A stretch of DNA of 64,000 nucleotides from Parcubacteria group bacterium (GTDB lineage Bacteria; Patescibacteriota; Minisyncoccia; Phycocordibacterales; 21-14-all-47-15): NCBI GenBank assembly GCA_016181845.1, contig JACOYO010000003.1, positions 16,185 to 80,184 of the forward strand, read 5' to 3'. A program made the position numbers and the translations under genes. The notes below the pieces were generated by a model. The model did not search any database. It saw nothing but the letters and a program-made list of their open reading frames with translations, and was not told the origin of the DNA. Below, piece by piece: positions 1 to 59,501 of the stretch. Position 1 is the stretch's first letter. The number at the start of each line of letters is the position of its first letter.

Positions 1-444
1 GCTTTATCAGTTGAAAAGAATTATCCGCATCGGGCCGCGCTTTATGATAAACTCCTCTCTTCCGAGACAAAAAACGCCCAAAAAGAAACCGTTGACGCGG
101 TGACGTTTGCGGTGGTAAGCACGGCGTACACCGTGCACGCGCGCGCGATTGTGGCGCTTACTGAATCAGGCCTCACCGCGCGTATGCTCTCGCGATATCG
201 TCCGGAACAGCTGATCATCGTAATGAGCCCGCGCGAAGAAACCATCCGCCAGCTCTCGCTTTCTTTCGGATGTTCATCCGCGCATATTGATGCGTTCACC
301 GATATCACCGAGGTGATGAAAACAGTGCGAACTTTTGTACTGACAAACAAAATTGCAAAAAAGGGAGACCGCGTGGTTATCGCCGCGGGTATTCCATTTG
401 GCAAATCCGGTGGCACCAACCTGCTTTTGGTTCAAGTAGTGTAA
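1..444 (+). CDS. pyk: pyruvate kinase, C-terminal fragment (5' end outside window)
   Basis: Frame 1 is open from nt 1 and reads ...VALTESGLTARMLSRYRPEQLIIVMSP...KGDRVVIAAGIPFGKSGGTNLLLVQVV, which is the typical PK C-terminal regulatory domain; stop at 442-444. Confidence 0.75.
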   Translation, partial: ALSVEKNYPHRAALYDKLLSSETKNAQKETVDAVTFAVVSTAYTVHARAIVALTESGLTARMLSRYRPEQLIIVMSPREETIRQLSLSFGCSSAHIDAFTDITEVMKTVRTFVLTNKIAKKGDRVVIAAGIPFGKSGGTNLLLVQVV

Positions 445-455
445 AAACTATAAAC

Positions 456-7727: not shown

Positions 7728-7928
7728 ATGCAACAAGGCACTATCGCCAGACTGACAGACAAAGGCTACGGATTCATTTCGCGCGAAGGAGAAGCAAAAG
7801 ACCTTTTCTTTCACGCAAACGAACTCCGAGACGTCAGATACGACGAACTCAAAGAGGGAGACAGCGTTTCCTTTGAAATCGCCGAAAGCCACAAAGGCAT
7901 GCACGCAGTAAATGTGTCGCGCGTCTAA
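7728..7928 (+). CDS. cold-shock protein (CspA family), second copy
   Basis: 66 aa; GTIARLTDKGYGFISREGEAKDLFFHAN... Confidence 0.9.
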   Translation: MQQGTIARLTDKGYGFISREGEAKDLFFHANELRDVRYDELKEGDSVSFEIAESHKGMHAVNVSRV

Positions 7929-13589: not shown

Positions 13590-13639
13590 ACTTAGTGGTT
13601 GAACCTCTCAGTGAAAGACTATGCCAGTATACTGGCATA
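13590..13639. repeat. composite dispersed repeat: acttagtggttgaacc... palindrome (R2) next to the tatgccagtatactggcata palindrome (R1)
   Basis: The same R2+R1 juxtaposition recurs at 46704-46785. Confidence 0.6.
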
Positions 13640-36821: not shown

Positions 36822-38861
36822 TTACAAAGGTTCCTCCTTCGTTGTGGATAACTTCTGCAATATCAAAAGTTCATCGCGCAAAAGCGCCGCGGTTTCAAAA
36901 TCAAGGATTTTTGCCGCCGCGTTCATTTGTTTTTCTTTTTCGGTGATTATTTTTTGAAGTTTTTTTGGATTCGCCGCGAATTTTTCTTTATCAATTACAA
37001 GCACCGCATTCACGGCTTTCGCGTGTTCGCTTTGCAATGCTTCGGTAATATCGTGGATCTTTTTCTCTATGGTTTTTGGAGTAATTCCATGTTTTTTATT
37101 ATAAGCAATCTGCAATGCTCTACGGCGATTGGTTTCGCTTATCGCCCGCTCCATGGAGCCAGTAGTAGTATCGGCATAGAGAATAACCCGCCCGAAAACA
37201 TTGCGCGCCGCGCGCCCGATAATCTGGACAAGCGATGTTTCGCTCCTCAAAAACCCCTCTTTGTCTGCATCCAAAATACCGATAAGCGACACCTCCGGCA
37301 AATCAAGCCCTTCCCGCAAGAGATTCACACCGACAATCACGTCAAATTTTCCTTTTCTAAAATCGGTGAGAATTCCGATGCGTTCCATGGTTTTAATTTC
37401 ACTGTGCAAGTATTCGGCTTTGATTTTTTTCTCTTTGAGATACGCACTCAAATCTTCAGCCATTTTTTTGGTGAGCGTCGTCGCAATCGCACGGTATCCT
37501 TTTTTAATTTCTTTTTCCGCTTCGGTAATAAAGTCGGCAATCTGTCCTCGATACTTCCCTTTTTCTATCACTCCGCGCACTTCCACTTCGGGGTCTGTTA
37601 ATCCGGTCGGGCGGATAATTTGTTCAACCACTTGCTTACTTTTCTCGCGTTCATAATTTGCCGGCGTCGCCGAAGTAAAAATTACTTGCCCGATGCGCTT
37701 TTCAAATTCATGAAATTTAAGCGGGCGATTATCCTGCGCCGAGGGCAGACGAAATCCATATTCAACGAGCGTTTTTTTGCGCGCGGCATCTCCTTCATAC
37801 ATGCCGCCGATTTGCGGCACGGTTACGTGCGATTCATCTATGATGATGAGAAAGTCTGGCGTTCCGTCTTTGTGATGCGGGAAATAAGAGAGTAGCGTGT
37901 CGGGCGGTTCTCCAGGCGCTTTGCCAGAAAAATGCCGCGAATAATTTTCAATGCCATTGCAATATCCGACTTCTCTGATAAGGGCGATATCATGATTAGT
38001 ACGACGCTTGAGTCGTTCGGCATCGAGCATCTTGCCCGCCGCTTCAAGTTCTTTCAGCCGCTCTTTTAATTCCGCTTGAATGCTTTTCACCGCGATAGCC
38101 CGGCGTTTTTCATCGGTCACAAAGTGTTTCGCCGGAAAAAGAAAAATCTCCCGCGGCTCACTAATAATACTTCGCGAGATAGCATCTAATTGAATTATGT
38201 TTGTTATCCGCCCGTCCGAAAGTTCCAGACGATAGAGCACTTTCTCATGCGGCGGCATCACCTCAACGACATTGCCAATAGCGCGAAAAGTGCCGGTGGT
38301 TACATCGGCATTAGTGCGTTCATAATAAATCTTGATAAGTTTACGCATCAAGTCGGCGCGGCTTATCCGCGTCTCGCGCGCAATCTGAAGATGTTCTTCT
38401 TTGTATTCTTCCGGGCTTCCTAAGCCATAAATACAAGATACCGAAGCGACAATAACCACATCGCGGCGTGTCAAAAGCGCCTGCGTGGACGCGTGGCGAA
38501 GCCGGTCAATCTCTTTGTTGATTTGCGCGTCTTTTTCAATATAGGTATCGCTTATCGGCATGTACGCTTCCGGCTGATAATAATCGTAGTAAGAAACAAA
38601 ATAATGCACCGCGTTATTGGGGAAAAATTCTTTATACTCTTGTGCGAGCTGTGCCGCTAGTGTTTTATTATGCGCGATAACGAGCGTCGGCTTCCCTATC
38701 GCCGCAATAACATTTGCCGCCGTAAACGTCTTCCCCGAGCCGGTCACGCCCAAAAGCGTCTGGTGGCTCATCCCTTTTTTCAAACCTTCTACGAGCGACA
38801 AAATTGCCTTCGGCTGGTCTCCTGCTGGCTTATATTCACTTCGTAATTTAAACGATTGCAT
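36822..38861 (-). CDS. uvrB: excinuclease ABC subunit B
   Basis: Helicase motifs (GVTGSGKT, DESH), a C-terminal UvrC-interacting coiled coil (…LRDELLILQKL…) and the typical 679 aa. Confidence 0.95.
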   Translation of the reverse strand: MQSFKLRSEYKPAGDQPKAILSLVEGLKKGMSHQTLLGVTGSGKTFTAANVIAAIGKPTLVIAHNKTLAAQLAQEYKEFFPNNAVHYFVSYYDYYQPEAYMPISDTYIEKDAQINKEIDRLRHASTQALLTRRDVVIVASVSCIYGLGSPEEYKEEHLQIARETRISRADLMRKLIKIYYERTNADVTTGTFRAIGNVVEVMPPHEKVLYRLELSDGRITNIIQLDAISRSIISEPREIFLFPAKHFVTDEKRRAIAVKSIQAELKERLKELEAAGKMLDAERLKRRTNHDIALIREVGYCNGIENYSRHFSGKAPGEPPDTLLSYFPHHKDGTPDFLIIIDESHVTVPQIGGMYEGDAARKKTLVEYGFRLPSAQDNRPLKFHEFEKRIGQVIFTSATPANYEREKSKQVVEQIIRPTGLTDPEVEVRGVIEKGKYRGQIADFITEAEKEIKKGYRAIATTLTKKMAEDLSAYLKEKKIKAEYLHSEIKTMERIGILTDFRKGKFDVIVGVNLLREGLDLPEVSLIGILDADKEGFLRSETSLVQIIGRAARNVFGRVILYADTTTGSMERAISETNRRRALQIAYNKKHGITPKTIEKKIHDITEALQSEHAKAVNAVLVIDKEKFAANPKKLQKIITEKEKQMNAAAKILDFETAALLRDELLILQKLSTTKEEPL

Positions 38862-40101
38862 CTGTTTTATAGTAATTATTCAAAAAATTTTTTTTATATA
38901 ATTCAAAATTATTGTCTACAATACTACGGCGAATTTTTTTCACCAAATTCACGATAAAAAAGAGATTATGAATTGACGCAAGTGTCGCCGCAAACATTTC
39001 TTTTGCGCGAAAAAGATGTGCCACATACGCGCGAGTATAATGCGCGCATGTATAGCATCGGCATTCTTTTTCTATCGGTGAAAAATCTTCCCGATATTGC
39101 GCGTTCAGAATGTTCATTCGCCCATCGTGTGTGTAGAGCGTGCCGTTTCGCGCCATACGTGTCGGCGCCACACAATCAAACAAATCTATCCCGTTTTCAA
39201 TTCCGCCAAATAAATCGGAGGGCTCGCCGATGCCAAGCAAATGCCGCGGCTTATCCTTCGGCAAGAGCGCATTGACCCAGCCCACGGCGGTGTTCATGTC
39301 TTCTTTGTCAAACGAGCCGCCGATGCCAAACCCATCAAACCCTCGGTCGCCAGATTTCATTTGAGAAATAATTCTCGCGCTCTCTTCGCGCAAATCTCTA
39401 AATCGCCCTCCCTGCACAATACCAAAAAGCGCCTGCTTTCTCCCACTTGGTGGTTGAGCCTCCAGGTGAAAATCAAGACAGCGCTTTGCCCAGCGGTGCG
39501 TGCGCTCCGTCGCTTCTTCTTGGTACGCGCGCGGCGCTTTGGGCGATGTGCATTCATCAAACGCGAAAATGATATCAGCGCCGATGTTGTGCTGAATCTC
39601 AATGGAACGCTCAGGCGTAAAACGATGTTCACTGCCATCCAAATGTGAACGAAACGTGACTCCGTCTTCATCAATTTTTGCCAGCGCAATATCTTCTCCA
39701 TTTTCTTCGCTGAAGCTCTCTCCGTTTTTTTCTCCTTTGGCAATCTTACTCACATTAGTACCAAATGCCGCGCCAAGAGAAAATGCCTGAAATCCGCCAG
39801 AGTCAGTCATTGTCGGTCCATGCCAATTCATGAAGTTATGCAGACCACCCGCTTTTTTCACGCGCAAGTCGCCCGGTTCAAGATACAAATGATATGTATT
39901 CGCGAGCACCACTTGCGCGCCGAGAGATGCAACCTGCTCCGGCGACAATGCTTTTACCGATGCTTTCGTGCCGACAACAACAAACGCCGGCGTTTCAATA
40001 CTGCCATGCGGCGTCGTTAATATACCGGCGCGGCCAAGCGCATTCGGTATCTTTTTTTGTATGGAAAAATTTATTGGCGACATGGCGAAACTATACCACA
40101 C
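38848..40101 (-). CDS. tgt: queuine tRNA-ribosyltransferase
   Basis: ...VVGTKASVKAL... and the C-terminal zinc site CRCYTC...H. 417 aa; the real start may be M6. Confidence 0.9.
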   Translation of the reverse strand: MWYSFAMSPINFSIQKKIPNALGRAGILTTPHGSIETPAFVVVGTKASVKALSPEQVASLGAQVVLANTYHLYLEPGDLRVKKAGGLHNFMNWHGPTMTDSGGFQAFSLGAAFGTNVSKIAKGEKNGESFSEENGEDIALAKIDEDGVTFRSHLDGSEHRFTPERSIEIQHNIGADIIFAFDECTSPKAPRAYQEEATERTHRWAKRCLDFHLEAQPPSGRKQALFGIVQGGRFRDLREESARIISQMKSGDRGFDGFGIGGSFDKEDMNTAVGWVNALLPKDKPRHLLGIGEPSDLFGGIENGIDLFDCVAPTRMARNGTLYTHDGRMNILNAQYREDFSPIEKECRCYTCAHYTRAYVAHLFRAKEMFAATLASIHNLFFIVNLVKKIRRSIVDNNFELYKKNFLNNYYKTDAIV

Positions 40102-40188
40102 AATACAAGAAAATATATAATGGCTACTGAAAATATGTTGTAAAATAACGTTTTTTCTAGAACTTGCGCCCGCATAATATAAAAATAC

Positions 40189-40217
40189 TTGACAAATAAT
40201 TTGAATAGTGTATATTA
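40189..40217 (+). promoter_or_regulatory. sigma-70-like promoter (TTGACA-16/17-TATATT) reading into the ORF-poor region
   Basis: TTGACA at 40189-40194. Confidence 0.4.
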
Positions 40218-40229
40218 TAAAAGTAATTA

Positions 40230-40900
40230 TTTATCATGGTTGACGAATTTTGTCGGCGTGTGATAAGATGATTGAGTTCTTTTCAACGGCAGGTCAATCT
40301 TAAATCTAAGATTGATTTGCTAAATATCAAGAGAGTCAAAAGTAAAGGAGACCCCACGATGGCACGAGCATCCCCGTTGACGTGCATGTACGCCAACAAA
40401 ATAAAGACAATTGTGAACGACGATACAACCATCCCCTGATCCCTGGTCGACGGCGCCCGATAGTTGTTGGGATGCTATACCATGGGGGTATAGATTATTC
40501 TCAACGCTAAACGGGATAGCCACCCGAAAAGGAAAAGGAGAAAAAAATGGTCCCTCGAGCCCCGACCTAGGGAGGTTTCCTCCCTAAAAAAATAAAGATG
40601 GAGTGGTGGGAAGCGATACTTTACTTTACTAAAAAATAACAAGTGATAATAAAAGTCTATAAAAAAAGTATTGTTTCCCAATTATCCCCCATGACCTCAC
40701 TGCCGCTCTCGCCTACTCTCCCTATGGGAGAATAATAGTAGACGGAAGAGCGACCGGAGAACCGGTACTGCGCTATGCCGGCAGTACCTAAGGAGGATCC
40801 AATGGACCGACTAGGTCGGCCACCCTAGTGAAGGTGGCCACATTAAAATCCAGCCCGCAGTAAGTTTACGTTTTGCGTAAACCCTGCGGGCTTTTTAGTT
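40230..40900 (+). other. ORF-poor, hairpin-rich locus with several SD-led micro-ORFs; candidate structured RNA or micropeptide locus
   Basis: No ORF of 60 aa or more. Hairpins: ggccacc...ggtggcc, ggtactgc...gcagtacc, gggagg...cctccc. Micro-ORFs behind AAGGAG(G): 40359-40439 (MARASPLTCMYANKIKTIVNDDTTIP), MVPRAPT, MEWWEAILYFTKK, MDRLGRPP. The locus ends in a strong terminator. Confidence 0.3.
40852..40896 (+). terminator. strong intrinsic terminator ending the ORF-poor locus
   Basis: agcccgcag-taagtttacgttttgcgtaaac-cctgcgggctttttt. Confidence 0.6.
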
Positions 40901-40960
40901 TGTATATTTCTAAAAAACGACGAGCATGCTAGAGTATGGAAAGAAGATGTTTTACATATA

Positions 40961-40989
40961 TTCACTTAGTGGTTGAACCACTAAGTGAA
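40961..40989. repeat. R2 palindrome copy (ttcacttagtgg-ttgaa-ccactaagtgaa)
   Basis: 29 bp; related copies at 13590-13616, 46733-46755 and 49951-49976. Confidence 0.6.
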
Positions 40990-41008
40990 CATAACAAAGG
41001 AGCCGCGT

Positions 41009-41860
41009 ATGAATGAGCCCGTTTCAAAAAAAGACCCTTCTTTTGAAATTACGTTATTTACAGCAATGGACCAAACCGGAAGAATGAGAAACTCGCAAGA
41101 GTCGGACCGACCACTTTGGGATAATAACCCGGAGATTATTAAGGAGCTCAATCGGATTGCTTTTAGAAAAATCATATTGATGGGAAGAAAAACATACGAA
41201 CTCCTCCTGCACGACGCGACCAAGCATGTTTTTTTAAATGACGCGGCGATTATTTTCGTTCTCACAAAAAAGCGCGGCGATGAACTTATTAAAAAAGAGC
41301 ACACCTCACACGTGTATGCTATTAATGCGCTTGAAGGTATAAGAAATTTTTGGTGGTTATTGGAAGAAGCATTTGAGGAAAAAAGGAGACAAAAAATAAC
41401 AGCGTGCCGCAAAGTACAAAATGACTGGAGAAAGAAACCGGAAACGACTGGCACAAAAGAAAACTCCGAATCGCCGATGTCTAATCCAAAAGATAAAGAA
41501 CTGGTTGAACAACTAGAAAAAACAATAGATAGTATAGAGCAAGAAAAAATCCCAATCCAACCGGAAATTGTGGTGCTTGGAGGCGTTAGTTTGTATCAAG
41601 AAATGATTGATTATGCCACTGCTATCTATGCATTTCTGATTCATGCTGAATTTACCGGCGAAGAAAAATTCCCTCTCTTTTTCAATGAGCAAGACTGGGA
41701 AATTAAAGGGGAGATGGACTCTAAAGAAAAAGATTCCAACGGATATCCCCTTTTTACGTCAATAACATATCGGCGAAAAGCCCAGCCAGAAAAACATCTG
41801 CCTTTTTTCAGGCCGGATTTGCCTCCTTTGCCTGTGGAAAAAGAAAAATCAAAAAAATGA
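41009..41860 (+). CDS. dihydrofolate-reductase-fold protein with an approximately 80-aa Lys/Glu-rich insertion
   Basis: Start at MNEPVSKK (AAAGGAG upstream). The N-terminal half has ...LFTAMDQTGRMRN...PLW...ILMGRKTYELL...; the C-terminal half has ...IVVLGGVSLYQEMIDYATAIYAFLIHAEFTGEEKFP...DWE, which matches the DHFR pattern. Confidence 0.55.
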   Translation: MNEPVSKKDPSFEITLFTAMDQTGRMRNSQESDRPLWDNNPEIIKELNRIAFRKIILMGRKTYELLLHDATKHVFLNDAAIIFVLTKKRGDELIKKEHTSHVYAINALEGIRNFWWLLEEAFEEKRRQKITACRKVQNDWRKKPETTGTKENSESPMSNPKDKELVEQLEKTIDSIEQEKIPIQPEIVVLGGVSLYQEMIDYATAIYAFLIHAEFTGEEKFPLFFNEQDWEIKGEMDSKEKDSNGYPLFTSITYRRKAQPEKHLPFFRPDLPPLPVEKEKSKK

Positions 41861-44105: not shown

Positions 44106-46037
44106 TTAATGCGCAATCAGCTGGTTGGCAATCATGAATATATTGCCGAGCAATGACGCGCTTTTGGCATTTGATTGCGGCGCTTCGGATGGAGGTGGCG
44201 GAGCAATACTGCCGTCTAAAGGAGCGGTAAATCCTGTTGGTTCCGTTTGTGGCGGAGGTGGCGCTATCTGTTGCTGTTCTTGCTGGAGCATCATTCCGCT
44301 ATCTATTGGTTGTATGATTGGCATTATTGAAGTGCGCTCTCCTTCCTGAAAACCTTGTTCTGTTTGCGGCATTTGCGGTATAAATTTTTCCCCTTCTATT
44401 CTCATCATATTGTCGTCTCCCATCATCGGTCTTTCAAAAGATTGCCGGTCGTCAAATTTCTGCTCGCCTTCAAAAATCCGCTGTTGTACATCGCGCTGAA
44501 ATTCTTCAGGATTCTTAAAATGTTCCAATGACGGCATCCCTTCGCGCACGCATCGCTCAATCGTCCCGCCGATGTCAGACGGCGCGCGACTGCTATCAAG
44601 CGCCCCTTTCACGCAATCACGCGCGGATTCCGGCACAGCATTGAGATTAAAATGTTCTTGAAATCCTTTTTTGATTTCGCGCTCGCGAATATTCCTCTCA
44701 TCATCTTTTCCTTTCATCATTCCATTCTCTCCATGCTCAAAGCCGCCATTAAAATCTTCCAGCATATTGCCTTGCATGTCTCTGAAATCGCCTCGCGGTT
44801 GCTCGCCGCTGAATTGTTCAAAACATCCGCGTATTTCTGACTCCGCTTTTTGGCGTTCTTCTTGAGACATCTTGCCCATATTTTGCAATCCTTCTTTGCC
44901 GATGCGTTCAGTAACGCAAGATTCCACCTCCGGAGGCATGTTTCCCATAAACCCGCCTTCACCATTTTCAGGTCCTCCCATTCCGCCGAATTGTTCAAAA
45001 CATTTTTGCGCGGTGTCGCCAATATTTTTTCCTGGCATCTTGGTGCCGGCGCGAATGCCTTCAATCACGTCAGACCCGAGAGCGTCTTTTAAGCATTGCG
45101 ACACTGGAGCAGGCGCTTCATCAAGCATTTTTCTAAATTCTCCGACATGGCGGTTAATATTTTCAAGCTCATCTGGAGGTATCAGCCCATGCTCTTGCGC
45201 AAACGCAAAACAGGCATCCTGATGCGCGGGGTCTTCGCAATATGTTTGACATTCTTCGCGCTTACAGCCACCGGGGCCTTTGCCACCCGTTTTCCTAGCC
45301 ATTTCAGCGTCTTTTGCAGAAACAAATCCCGCTTTTTCACCAAAAGCAAGACATTCTTCAAAATGAGAGTCGTCGTTGCAGTATGCTTCACATTCTTTTT
45401 TGCCTTTGCATCCGCCCGGCATTTGTCCGCTCTTCATAAGGGGGGCGATACGCCTTGCTTCCGCAAGTTCTTCGGGAGGAATAAATCCGGCTTTTTCAGC
45501 AAACGCCAAACACTCATCTATGTGCGCGCCGTCTTCACAATATGCCTGACATTCTTTTTTCCCCTTACAACCCCCGGGCGGCACCGCGCCGTCTTTCAGC
45601 GCTTTTGCCACTTGTTTTGCTTCTTTTAATTCATCGGGCGGAATAAGACCGTGTTTTTCTCCAAACGCGACGCACTCTTCAATATGCGCCACATCTTCGC
45701 AATACGTATCGCAAGCCCCCTTTGAAGCACAGCCGCCAGGCCCGCTTGTTTCTCCAAGTTGCGCGAATTTCTTTGCCTCCCGTAATTCATCTGGCGGAAT
45801 TAAATTATATTTTTCTGCAAAAGAAAGACATGCATTGACATGCGACAAATCGTCACAATACGCACGGCACGCTTTTTCGTCCTTACAATCCCCCAATTCT
45901 GAAACCGGAAATACGATGTCTTGTGCCGTAAGCGCCTGCGCGGAAGAAACGCCAACTGCTCCGATGCCGACAATAACCGCTATAAAAAAAATCGCGTATC
46001 TCGTAAAAAGAAAAATATTTTTGTGCCGCATAAACAA
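44106..46037 (-). CDS. secreted protein with five tandem 4-Cys modules (about 49 aa each) and a long acidic, Gly/Met/Gln-rich, Pro-terminated tail
   Basis: Signal peptide ...GAVGVSSAQA. The repeat consensus is approximately GGCKGKKEC.AYCEDxxHI.EC.AFAEK.G.IPPDEL.EA, with C-x5-6-C-x3-C-x8-C spacing. Confidence 0.55.
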   Translation of the reverse strand: MFMRHKNIFLFTRYAIFFIAVIVGIGAVGVSSAQALTAQDIVFPVSELGDCKDEKACRAYCDDLSHVNACLSFAEKYNLIPPDELREAKKFAQLGETSGPGGCASKGACDTYCEDVAHIEECVAFGEKHGLIPPDELKEAKQVAKALKDGAVPPGGCKGKKECQAYCEDGAHIDECLAFAEKAGFIPPEELAEARRIAPLMKSGQMPGGCKGKKECEAYCNDDSHFEECLAFGEKAGFVSAKDAEMARKTGGKGPGGCKREECQTYCEDPAHQDACFAFAQEHGLIPPDELENINRHVGEFRKMLDEAPAPVSQCLKDALGSDVIEGIRAGTKMPGKNIGDTAQKCFEQFGGMGGPENGEGGFMGNMPPEVESCVTERIGKEGLQNMGKMSQEERQKAESEIRGCFEQFSGEQPRGDFRDMQGNMLEDFNGGFEHGENGMMKGKDDERNIREREIKKGFQEHFNLNAVPESARDCVKGALDSSRAPSDIGGTIERCVREGMPSLEHFKNPEEFQRDVQQRIFEGEQKFDDRQSFERPMMGDDNMMRIEGEKFIPQMPQTEQGFQEGERTSIMPIIQPIDSGMMLQQEQQQIAPPPPQTEPTGFTAPLDGSIAPPPPSEAPQSNAKSASLLGNIFMIANQLIAH

Positions 46038-46351: not shown

Positions 46352-46703
46352 ATTATATTTAGTATAGCAAGACGGTTTTTCTATTCAAGAAAAAGTTATG
46401 CACATGAGCCACACTCAAAACTCCAATTGCAAAAAAGCCCCGCGAAAGGGCTTTAGAATGTGTCTGTCTATGATACCTGTCACCAGCAGAAAGCGTGGGG
46501 ATTTTAATCCTGTGTACGCAGAGAATTATCCCCGCTTTCTGCCGGTGAATGTCCGGCAAAAAATAACCTTATTCTTTATTCTTATTTGGGAACACCAGTT
46601 TTATATTGTATCATAACTCATTCACTCCACAAGTGCATAACTTGTAAATTCAAGAATACATGACTCTTACAAAGTCATACAAATGGTAGCGCTTTGTAGA
46701 TGG

Positions 46704-46785
46704 TATGCCAGTATACTGGCATAGTCTTTGTCACTTAGTGGCTCAACCACTAAGTTGATACTGAGAGGTTGAGCCACTAAGTTTG
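46704..46785. repeat. composite dispersed repeat: R1 palindrome (46704-46723), then R2 palindrome (46733-46755), then a partial R2
   Basis: tatgccagtatactggcata ... acttagtggctcaaccactaagt ... ttgagccactaagt. Confidence 0.6.
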
Positions 46786-46910
46786 TCAAAACAAAGAAAA
46801 CAAAGGTTAGCCCTTTGTTGGAGATAACTTTTTGACGACGCGGAAGCAAAAACATCTTTTATAAGCGGCGCGCGACAATACGCCACGCCGCAAAAAAAGA
46901 AATTTTAATT

Positions 46911-47162
46911 CTATTGTTTGCCCATTTTCGGAGCAACGAAGATAAGATAGATAGCCGACAAACCGACTAAATCGTAGATAATGCGGGAGAGAACGGAGGC
47001 GCTGCCAAAAAGAGTGGCCACGAGATCAAAATTGAAAAACCCGACAAGGCCCCAATTAATGCCGCCGATAATCACCAAGACGAGAGCAATCCAGTCAATA
47101 GCACTAAGTTTATTCATCATAACGTTATGATTGTTATGTTTATAGATTAGTAAAACGACCAA
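46911..47162 (-). CDS. DUF378-family small membrane protein
   Basis: ...IDWIALVLVIIGGINWGLVGFFNFDLVATLFG...LSRIIYDLVGLSAIY... is typical of DUF378. The true start may be the internal MMNKLS. Confidence 0.65.
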   Translation of the reverse strand: MVVLLIYKHNNHNVMMNKLSAIDWIALVLVIIGGINWGLVGFFNFDLVATLFGSASVLSRIIYDLVGLSAIYLIFVAPKMGKQ

Positions 47163-47260
47163 TATATATTATACCAAAACGCACACTTAAACGGTCAAAA
47201 GTTATCCACCTATGAAAAAACAGCCGCGGTTGTATATATCGCGGCTGTTATCATTGCTGA

Positions 47261-59430: not shown

Positions 59431-59501
59431 CTGCCCGACAGGGATTCGAACCCCAATTAACGGCTTCAAAGGCCGCTGTCCTACCATTAGACGATCGGGC
59501 A
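59431..59501 (-). tRNA. tRNA-Gln (anticodon UUG)
   Basis: Manual fold of the reverse complement. Acceptor UGCCCGA/UCGGGCA has U1:A72, as in bacterial tRNA-Gln. D-stem GUCU/GGAC; anticodon stem GCGGC/GCCGU with loop CUUUGAA; T-arm UGGGG-UUCGAAU-CCCUG; discriminator G; CCA not encoded. Confidence 0.7.

Follow-up and report, generated by a model that had tools for sequence, protein, structure and literature searches.

Slow termination at the end of a short open reading frame (ORF) has precedents in TnaC, in SsrA tagging at C-terminal Pro-Pro and in upstream ORF 2 (uORF2) of cytomegalovirus UL4, which ends in ...YIPP-stop. That a C-terminal Pro-Pro slows termination was reportedly found by Hayes, Bose and Sauer in 2002. 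The locus described here, positions 40189-40900 of a 64,000-nucleotide stretch of contig JACOYO010000003.1 from a Parcubacteria group bacterium (the whole stretch is called the window below), lies between tgt and a DHFR-like gene and holds three micro-ORFs (ORF1, ORF2 and ORF3), each led by a Shine-Dalgarno (SD) site; the ends of the unit's ORFs may resemble the RAPP and IPP arrest motifs. The best explanation of the locus, although evenly balanced between being right and being wrong, is a lineage-specific small-ORF transcription unit that has been remodelled into three micro-ORFs in the window. Homologous units, referred to as sister units, are found in four related loci (L083, L085, L088 and L104).

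Termination-stalling and arrest leaders (TnaC, ...RP-stop; the RAPP-type ApdA/ApdP; PepNL; UL4 uORF2) share with the unit a short SD-led frame that is conserved at its last residues. The conserved C-terminal motif that characterizes arrest peptides is seen here as GP[LF]GIPP-stop in the small ORFs of L083, L088 and L085, as LGRPP-stop in ORF3 and as RAPT-stop in ORF2. The stop codons of the unit's ORFs lie in a hairpin, which is a further likeness, and by analogy stalling may be supposed here too. In contrast to these leaders, the hairpin is followed in every copy by a terminator and not by a regulated ORF, the DHFR-like gene has a promoter-like block of its own, and conservation of the sister ORFs extends to a motif near the N-terminus, IIGRLQ. 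Arrest peptides of the RAPP and PepNL kinds are described in three publications (PMC10951233, PMC7897499, PMC11890864).

The translational attenuation leaders of erm and cat likewise combine a strong SD with an ORF of 5-26 codons and, immediately after it, a hairpin, and the hairpin of the second micro-ORF module in the window pairs an SD-like GGGAGG with CCUCCC. The unit differs from them in that no gene starts within SD distance of the GGGAGG that the hairpin sequesters (23 nt separate it from the next ATG, which opens a 13-codon frame), in that there are three serial modules, and in that there is no resistance gene. Dual-function small RNAs (sRNAs), such as SgrS/SgrT, RNAIII/hld and SR1/SR1P, are comparable as independent, structured, accessory and lineage-restricted units of a few hundred nt with an SD-led small ORF. 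However, the unit has no Rfam homology and no identified target or base-pairing region, and its ORF has shrunk to 7-8 codons in the window. Type I toxin-antitoxin mRNAs (hok, fst, txpA) are likewise structured mRNAs of a few hundred nt that encode a peptide of ~50 amino acids and are patchy among close relatives. This identity was rejected, as the peptides are not hydrophobic or transmembrane, the promoter scan gave no antisense promoter, convergent or overlapping, near the 3' end, and PADLOC and Pfam were blank.

A preliminary description of the window had suggested a micropeptide locus or one resembling precursors of ribosomally synthesized and post-translationally modified peptides (RiPPs). 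The micropeptide part has partly held up, in that the sister units carry an SD-led ORF from which two of the window's micro-ORFs appear to descend. The RiPP part has not, there being no maturation enzyme (cyclodehydratase, radical SAM, lanthipeptide synthetase, protease/transporter) among the neighbouring genes.

A transcription unit between tgt and the DHFR-like gene

The gap between the two genes is 925 bp (40084-41008). Two similar-sized ORF-poor gaps in the window do hold genes, one for a cold-shock-domain (CSD) protein and one for a DUF378 protein, and the spacer is thus the largest gene-free stretch of the window, in agreement with the preliminary description. No ORF of more than 68 amino acids is present in the spacer, and none of its frames has a match in Pfam, PHROGs or PADLOC. 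The longest frame (87 amino acids, minus strand) has no genuine homologue in an exhaustive HMMER search of 1.84 billion protein representatives. Its sole match, P0126 (1473 amino acids with 21 near-identical 70-residue repeats, E 6.5e-18), was rejected as a tandem-repeat artefact, because weak per-repeat scores were summed and there is no single matching stretch. A pseudogene of a known protein was rejected on the Pfam, PHROGs and PADLOC blanks together with the outcome of this search.

The stretch reads as a self-contained transcription unit on the plus strand that runs from promoter P1 to an intrinsic terminator, with a predicted RNA of ~670 nt (Table 1). P1 is kept in L083, L085, L088 and L104 while the flanking DNA diverges. 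The plausible sigma-70 promoter, the perfect stems and the strong terminator that had been pointed out before were all recovered, the stems along with several more. Back to back with P1 is a promoter-like site for tgt. It falls in the part of the spacer that is found only in element-bearing genomes, where a block, ATATGTTGTAAAATAA, is conserved in L083, L085 and L088. A second promoter-like site on the plus strand lies within a window-specific insertion of ~42 nt, which also forms a hairpin (40239-40257). Outside the element, between the terminator and the DHFR-like gene, is a further promoter-like block that is kept in all nine related loci, including unit-free ones (L083-L088 were examined; L082, L104 and L105 are listed by spacer length). 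This block is probably the DHFR-like gene's own extended -10 promoter; it is absent from the promoter-scan list, and its role is read from conservation.

With AGGAG placed 4-9 nt ahead of ATG as the criterion, three micro-ORFs are canonical. The pattern AGGAG-N(4-9)-ATG has an expectation of 6.1 occurrences over the two strands of the 64-kb window (128 kb) and of ~0.03 in one strand of the stretch, where three are observed. The excess of SD-led micro-ORFs noted in the preliminary description is therefore upheld, although its count of four or five is not, the MEWWEAILYFTKK and MTSLPLSPTLPMGE frames being without a real SD. All three peptides have a Pro-rich tail and all three stops are inside hairpins. 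ORF1 ends in CCC-TGA within the stem CAUCCC...GGGAUG, the TAG of ORF2 (40568-40570) is the foot of a hairpin at 40568-40586 (UAGGGAGG UUU CCUCCCUA), and the TAG of ORF3 (40826-40828) is in the loop of a hairpin at 40818-40839 (GGCCACC/GGUGGCC).

A 56-codon frame (40417-40587, plus strand), which is +1 relative to ORF1, has no ATG, GTG or TTG, ends in ...DLGRFPP-stop and reads through the ORF2 hairpin.

Distribution among close relatives

Neither synteny nor spacer similarity was found in the 80 nearest GTDB species representatives, in which Tgt is at most 70% identical. Closer relatives were reached via Tgt and DHFR homologues in ENA, Logan and NCBI assemblies, which gave ten loci. Contigs other than the nine compared below are of the window's own organism, which is also held in other samples (runs around SRR12113383-SRR12113430); being 100% identical, they are uninformative. 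The Logan contig SRR12113383_1461276 (L092) differs from the window solely in its first 19 bases, which are the Nextera mosaic-end adapter AGATGTGTATAAGAGACAG. The unit is absent from five loci with a DHFR-tgt spacer of 82-101 bp (L082, L084, L086, L087 and L105) and present in four with a spacer of 581-666 bp (L083, L085, L088 and L104, the last differing from L085 by three bases), compared with 925 bp in the window. The homologous intergenic regions that the preliminary description had proposed looking for thus exist in four sister sequences and are lacking from five relatives. The empty sites place the inserted segment at roughly 40100-40900.

The unit accompanies a long form of the DHFR-like protein (264-283 amino acids; window, L083, L088 and L085/L104) and is missing from all genomes with the short form (218-232 amino acids). 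The exception is L087, which has the long form without the unit. Presence of the unit is at odds with the Tgt tree: Tgt of L083 is 93% and 91% identical to that of the unit-free L084 and L105, respectively, whereas the DHFR-like proteins of L083 and these two are only ~46-50% identical. As presence tracks the DHFR form and not the Tgt tree, the unit and the neighbouring gene form behave as an exchangeable allele, and the conflict between the Tgt and DHFR trees suggests that alleles were replaced, the breakpoint being at the start of tgt. The comparison of loci shows the unit as accessory DNA: within a Paceibacteria ('Lloydbacteria'-like) genus, it occupies the tgt/DHFR spacer in one sub-lineage, and about half of the closest genomes carry it.

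Further afield, JGI metagenomes gave no match to the promoter pattern or to back-translated ORF motifs, phage and plasmid collections gave no match to the unit, and IMG/VR gave 16-17-nt chance seeds only. No relative was found in a protein database queried with a two-sequence alignment of the sister ORF.

Sister units and their small ORF

The sister units (L083, L088 and L085/L104) are 330-420 nt in length, and the window unit is twice as long. Their order is promoter, 5' leader, a cloverleaf where present, SD-led ORF, G-rich/C-rich hairpin and terminator. A promoter (AAAAATRCTTGACAAATA...) and a short 5' leader (AGTTAATTRAGTTCTTT) are common to the window and all four sisters; the conserved stretches are AAAAATGCTTGACAAATA... 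and AGTTAATTAAGTTCTTT in the promoter and leader, and CCGGACCAYTYGGYATTCCNCCCTAG at the end of the sister ORF. The terminators of L083, L088 and L085 are at the window's position but unrelated in sequence (-20 to -22 kcal/mol), and right after them comes the block TTCTAAAAAA...TGCTAG, which also stands ahead of the DHFR-like gene in empty genomes.

The sister ORF is one SD-led frame of 47-61 codons (Table 1) that conserves IIGRLQ towards its N-terminus and finishes in GP[LF]GIPP-stop, and the predicted peptides are basic or amphipathic, their tail being rich in Gly and Pro. The frame is open in three diverged sequences between a homologous SD/start and a homologous stop, which varies (TAG/TAA/TAG). 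Length differences are multiples of three, and changes within the IIGRLQ and GPxGIPP motifs are synonymous (GGA/GGT, CAA/CAG, GGT/GGC, CCG/CCT). Between L083 and L088, the unit differs by 17-21%, compared with 44% at synonymous sites of the adjacent DHFR gene (pS 0.44; dS 0.67, dN 0.065). As the unit diverges less than these synonymous sites, it is under constraint. Overall, the small ORF is probably coding in the sisters, though well short of certainly so. This sense ORF is uncalled by gene callers in every sister contig. An antisense gene of 109 amino acids that was called in L088 (350-679, minus strand) is probably spurious; in L083 and L085 it is not kept in a single frame, and it has no proper SD.

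The stop of the sister ORF is in the foot of the G-rich/C-rich hairpin, 45-70 nt from the terminator. This hairpin is found in every copy, with its A-U pair shifted (GGGGAG/CUCCCC, GGGGGAU/AUCCCC and GGGGGG/CCCCC, compared with GGGAGG/CCUCCC in the window). Across the homologues, positional conservation is limited to the terminator and one hairpin, and most stems of the window are genome-specific.

In L085/L104 and L088, the minimum-energy fold of a 74-nt segment upstream of the ORF is a four-arm cloverleaf, with D-arm loops AGUGGAUU / AGUGGCUU and T-arms GCAGG-UUCGAUU-CCUGC / UCAGG-UUCGAUU-CCUGA. The stems of the L085/L104 and L088 versions differ by paired exchanges (A-U/G-C). The cloverleaf is cleanly deleted in L083, and the window keeps just GCAGG, ahead of a different 15-bp hairpin that occupies the place of the T-arm (GCAGGTTCGTTTCCTGC) in L085 and L088. 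The cloverleaf cannot be recognised as a tRNA: the L085 version passes ARAGORN at the 95% threshold only, as 'Asn, anticodon ATT', and scores in the Rfam tRNA clan are 15.1, 18.0 and 20.6 bits, compared with gathering thresholds of 29-47. Comparison with 10 tRNAs in the fetched loci was uninformative on its origin. tRNA-Asn is among the tRNAs with GUN anticodons that Tgt normally modifies, and the adjacency of an Asn-like cloverleaf and tgt may or may not be a coincidence.

The resemblance to tRNA lies in the D-arm (AGUGG loop) and the T-arm (GGUUCGAUUCC) just past the promoter of L085/L104 and L088, and the resemblance to tmRNA in a tRNA-like domain and an ORF on one RNA in the sister units. 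Unlike in tmRNA, one uninterrupted segment at the 5' end, and not the 5' and 3' ends together, makes up the tRNA-like part, and the ORF has its own SD and start. L083 and the window lack the cloverleaf. A tmRNA identity was rejected, as ARAGORN at 80% thresholds called no tmRNA, one-piece or permuted, in the window or the sister loci, and the ORFs possess SDs and start codons; the Rfam family tmRNA_permuted reaches 8 bits in L104.

Remodelling of the unit in the window

A profile of the three sister proteins has no match in the window. At the DNA level, the SD and start of the L083 ORF (AAAGGAGGTATAAATGGTGCC) align best to 40534-40554 (AAAGGAGAAAAAAATGGTCCC, p 0.025), and its last codons, stop and hairpin (CCGCCCTAGGGGAGATTCCTCCC) align to 40562-40584 (CCGACCTAGGGAGGTTTCCTCCC, p<0.005). 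In L083, ~140 nt separate the one piece from the other, compared with 7 nt in the window. As both ends align and the interior gap is gone, ORF2 appears to be the sister ORF with its interior deleted; it retains the first codons (ATGGT.CC), the last codons, the SD and the hairpin. Judged from these alignments, the 47-61-codon ORF no longer exists in the window, and only its ends survive, as ORF2.

In ORF3, GGACCGACTAGGTCGGCCACCCTAG corresponds to the final eight codons of L083 (p 0.008), and one extra base brings LGRPP-stop in frame with a new ATG. Module 3 (40791-40839) aligns with module 2 (40536-40586) across AAGGAG, ATGG, the ORF, CCTAG, the hairpin and TAAAA (p 0.005). The two modules are only ~60% identical, but SD, ATG and in-frame stop are kept in both. 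By alignment, ORF3 is a diverged copy of the module 2 mini-cistron and of the C-terminal codons of the sister ORF. Module 1 has a weak similarity to module 2 (p 0.044). A tandem duplication of a whole half of the unit was considered and was not significant (p 0.53), alignment being confined to the short modules. Of the 24,489 peptides from six-frame translation of all fetched loci, those that end in [LFIM]G-x(1,2)-PP-stop belong to this locus only, and are the three sister ORFs, ORF3 and the start-less 56-codon frame of the window. Taken together, the alignments show the window unit as remodelled through internal deletion, mini-cistron duplication and the presence of ~350 nt of extra hairpin-forming sequence.

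Searches for known RNA families

At the gathering level of Rfam 15, the only match in the window is a tRNA-Gln at 59431. A permissive scan of 40050-41050 gave chance-level scores only (best 23.4 bits against a threshold of 63, with no match even at E<10), and in the sister loci no genuine match came up at gathering level or in permissive scans. ARAGORN called no tRNA or tmRNA in the window, even at the 80% threshold. The THF, ZTP and preQ1 riboswitches, 6S, SRP and RNase P do not reach the gathering score anywhere in the spacer. The Rfam scan advised in the preliminary description thus finds no family in the spacer, and the absence of tmRNA, RNase P, SRP and 6S signatures that was stated there is confirmed by ARAGORN and Rfam together. 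The preQ1-I riboswitch was considered because tgt, a queuosine gene, adjoins. The candidate at 40566-40601 (the ORF2 hairpin plus UAAAAAAAUAAAGAUGG) was rejected, with 15.7 bits against 39 and a ligand loop of 1 nt against ~10. The A-rich tail of this match is missing from the sister copies.

Weighing the explanations

A number of observations count against a small-ORF transcription unit. The sister ORF gives a weak coding signal (dN/dS ~0.5), with differences at the three codon positions of 11/9/16, compared with 20/18/76 in the DHFR gene, and other frames on both strands are stop-free for 80-117 codons in units of 330-420 nt (as is also seen at 40226-40600 of the window). Translation of a hairpin whose 5' arm is G-rich and whose 3' arm is C-rich yields Gly/Arg...Pro-Pro, and the recurring motif could be an RNA or DNA hairpin (there is a palindrome, CCCTAGGG, in L083 and L085) and not a peptide. 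The alignments of ORF2 and ORF3 are carried largely by SD, ATG, CCTAG and an A-run, such that homology and convergence are inseparable, and two MAFFT modes put the sister 3' module at different copies in the window. The five homologous sequences, two of which are near-identical, are too few for rigorous tests of coding or structure. As regards folding, the minus strand does as well as the plus strand (z -6.9), and other intergenic stretches of the genome are as structured or more (z -5.6, -8.4 and -11.5), mostly owing to perfect terminators. As other intergenic DNA is equally structured, hairpin density alone is not special here.

It is unlikely, though far from negligible, that the unit is a non-functional relic, that is, a dead accessory small gene with stems that are neutral debris of duplications, palindromic insertions and template switching, and with micro-ORFs that are leftovers. 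The destruction of the ancestral ORF, the unrecognisable cloverleaf (lost in L083 too), the doubled length and the lack of sister counterparts for most stems would fit such decay, as would a dispersed perfect palindrome that is inserted 60 bp further on in the window genome only, and the dispensability of a unit that five close relatives do without. However, the promoter (11 of 12 positions) and terminator are intact, SD, ATG and in-frame stop are retained in ORF2 and ORF3 despite the low identity of their modules, a 1-nt difference leaves LGRPP-stop in frame in ORF3, and three strong SD-ATG sites are present where 0.03 are expected. The novel structured RNA of the preliminary description, taken here as a ~670-nt transcript that would act, for instance, as a regulatory sRNA or as a protein sponge via C-rich/G-rich hairpins, with all ORFs including the sister frame as by-products, finds little backing and is improbable. 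The predicted transcript does have a strongly negative z for its minimum free energy (-6.45 with 20 shuffles, -8.1 with 30), the ORF-end hairpin and a CCGG hairpin are kept with altered sequence in all copies, constraint between L083 and L088 is near-even over codon positions, all six frames are stop-poor, and the 'peptide motif' may be a translated G/C hairpin. Set against this are the blank Rfam scans, the far poorer folding of the sisters (z -1.8 to -4.6, terminator included), the lack of conservation of most window stems, the equal folding of the minus strand, the enrichment of SD-ATG sites, the synonymous changes in the conserved sister motifs and the switching of the stop between TAG and TAA.

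A multi-leader-peptide attenuator of the DHFR-like gene had also been proposed in the preliminary description; in such a leader, translation of the micro-ORFs or stalling on them would control read-through of the terminator. The unit lies directly upstream of that gene in like orientation, its terminator abuts the DHFR promoter block, it co-occurs with the long DHFR-like form and is missing from short-form genomes, and its Pro-stop ends resemble termination-stalling leaders. Nevertheless, the proposal is contradicted by the conserved promoter-like block between terminator and gene, which stands alone in five unit-free genomes, and by L087, with its long form and no unit; the terminator is strong, the sister ORF stop is some distance from it (45-70 nt), and no convincing antiterminator pairing was seen in four sequences (by inspection and not by systematic search), all of which makes attenuation very improbable. 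Least credible of all is a programmed +1 frameshift, whereby ORF1 (...AUC CCC UGA) would slip on CCC-U into the 56-codon frame to give a protein of 77 amino acids. CCC-UGA is said to be a +1 shift-prone site, in work of Gurvich et al. from 2003. The 56-codon frame is open, without a start codon, and ends with the locus-specific motif, and 32 of its residues, up to a common C-terminus, align with the L085 ORF at 34% identity. With E 1.5 in a tiny database, this similarity lacks significance, and the profile search was blank; in the DNA alignment it is the TAG of ORF2, and not the TAA of the 56-codon frame, that matches the sister stop, stop-poor frames are common in these units, and no stimulatory SD lies upstream of the shift site. 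The evidence thus places the unit, as far as can be read from sequence, as neither a large conserved structured RNA nor an attenuator.

Under the small-ORF explanation, RNA would still be made from P1 to the terminator, ribosomes would load at three A-rich, unpaired AGGAG sites and translate 26, 7 and 8 codons, and termination would follow Pro-rich ends, on stops lying in hairpins. The retention of SD, ATG and in-frame stop in modules that are ~60% identical, together with the frame-restoring base, suggests that translation of the last few codons has been maintained. Selection may thus have kept initiation, the last codons, the stop and the hairpin, and not a folded protein. The unit would be dispensable and would evolve by deletion, duplication and hairpin insertion. 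As a best guess, it may work in cis on its own RNA or via very short peptides, by slow termination at Pro-Pro-stop or Pro-Thr-stop; this mechanism, which is drawn by analogy, is quite improbable in itself. The same low probability is given to a more specific proposal, taken as a whole: three diverged 'termination-pause' mini-cistrons, each with a strong SD, 7-26 codons ending ...LG[IR]PP, ...RAPT or ...TIP and a stop (mostly UAG) in a hairpin, might serve as a sensor or regulator of termination or of EF-P/RF1 capacity, or as a ribosome-dependent switch of RNA fate. Their origin would be a small-ORF gene that had a tRNA-like leader, and they would form a design specific to a Patescibacteria genus and without a described counterpart.

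Features of the spacer and its surroundings

The positions of the unit's features, of the neighbouring genes and of the sister ORFs and cloverleaf are given in Table 1. The locus neighbours comprise tgt, the DHFR-like gene, PBP, MazG, a PD-(D/E)XK nuclease and UvrA/B/C. An ORF of 643 amino acids (44106-46037, minus strand) is without a Pfam match, and its position is kept in L083, L084 and L105, where ORFs of 655-668 amino acids are likewise without Pfam matches. In the gap that holds the DUF378 gene, the remainder of 46385-46900 is a further hairpin-rich non-coding stretch (z -8.4 for 46385-47260).

Table 1. Positions and main properties of features of the unit, of its surroundings in the window and of the sister units.
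Feature	Position	Strand	Remarks
tgt	38848-40083	-	Pfam TGT, E 2e-139; N-terminal end at 40083
tgt promoter-like site	40117-40144	-	TTTACA-16-CATTAT, back to back with P1
Promoter P1	40189-40218	+	TTGACA-16/18-TATATT/TATTAT, 11/12 consensus positions
Second promoter-like site	40240-40269	+	TTGACG-18-TAAGAT with a TG
15-bp hairpin starting GCAGG	40288-40321	+	-18.5 kcal/mol, z -7.1
ORF1 (module 1)	40359-40439	+	SD AGGAG 40346-40350; peptide MARASPLTCMYANKIKTIVNDDTTIP, then stop; 26 codons
Perfect 7-bp hairpin CTATACC/GGTATAG	40475-40493	+	
ORF2 (module 2)	40547-40570	+	SD AGGAG 40536-40540; peptide MVPRAPT, then stop; 7 codons
16-bp long-range stem around a 42-nt A/T-rich loop	40607-40680	+	z -4.6; window-specific
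Imperfect long hairpin GCCGCUCU...AGAGCGAC	40704-40752	+	window-specific
ACCGG-AGAA-CCGGU hairpin	40753-40788	+	counterpart within sister ORFs (CCGGAAUCUCCGG)
Perfect 8-bp hairpin GGUACUGC/GCAGUACC	40764-40788	+	overlaps the ACCGG-AGAA-CCGGU hairpin
ORF3 (module 3)	40802-40828	+	SD AGGAGG 40791-40796; peptide MDRLGRPP, then stop; 8 codons
Intrinsic terminator	40852-40896	+	compound stem 40852-40892, then U5; -26.4 kcal/mol, z -7.3
Promoter-like block of the DHFR-like gene	40907-40935	+	TTTCTA-17-TGcTAGAGT, between terminator and gene
DHFR-like gene	41009-41860	+	Pfam DHFR_1
CSD gene	7728-7928	+	66 amino acids; perfect 14-16-bp terminator hairpins on both sides
DUF378 gene	46911-47120	-	69 amino acids; inside an ORF-poor gap
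Dispersed palindrome copies	40965-40985, 46734-46754, 46761-46781, 13591-13611		four copies
Small ORF of L083			peptide MVPTVQSALRMMRIIGRLQQSHPKFLEIPTGHFLPSSQPVEKGLPAGISGPLGIPP, then stop
Small ORF of L088			peptide (M)PTIQSALRMMRVIGRLQQGRLRQKFLEILPAGHLLFLQPQIIWVGKCPSAGIFGPFGIPP, then stop
Small ORF of L085			peptide (M)LAIKNEIIIGRLQRSLQKLFSVLQSHIGRGECKNYTGMTGPFGIPP, then stop
Sub-threshold cloverleaf, L085	612-686	-	between promoter and small ORF, divergent from tgt
Sub-threshold cloverleaf, L104	2751-2825	-	as in L085
Sub-threshold cloverleaf, L088	~370-445	+	as in L085

No repeat copy of 40100-40900 is present in the remaining 63 kb of the window, where the GGGAGG hairpin is also unique; an identity as a dispersed repeat, either repetitive extragenic palindromic (REP) or miniature inverted-repeat transposable element (MITE), was rejected on this single copy within 64 kb. 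A separate palindrome, ACTTAGTGG-N5-CCACTAAGT, occurs four times in the window (two perfect copies and two with two mismatches), compared with 0.09 expected. One copy, at 40957-40993, is in the 5' untranslated region of the DHFR-like gene, and this insertion is absent from L083, L085 and L088. This palindrome may serve as an operator or be a dispersed hairpin of the REP-like kind.

Implications

Were the unit merely decaying, it would be ordinary accessory intergenic DNA. If the small-ORF explanation is right, it would be a small-ORF transcript, unannotated and lineage-restricted, from an uncultivated lineage of Patescibacteria, and would provide a concrete example of a module with Pro-Pro-stop in a hairpin. 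It would also show how such a unit can change among very close relatives, by gain or loss as an allele with a form of the neighbouring gene, by internal deletion of its ORF and by mini-cistron duplication. The survival of start signals, last codons, stop and hairpin would then suggest that translation itself, and not the protein, is the selected feature.

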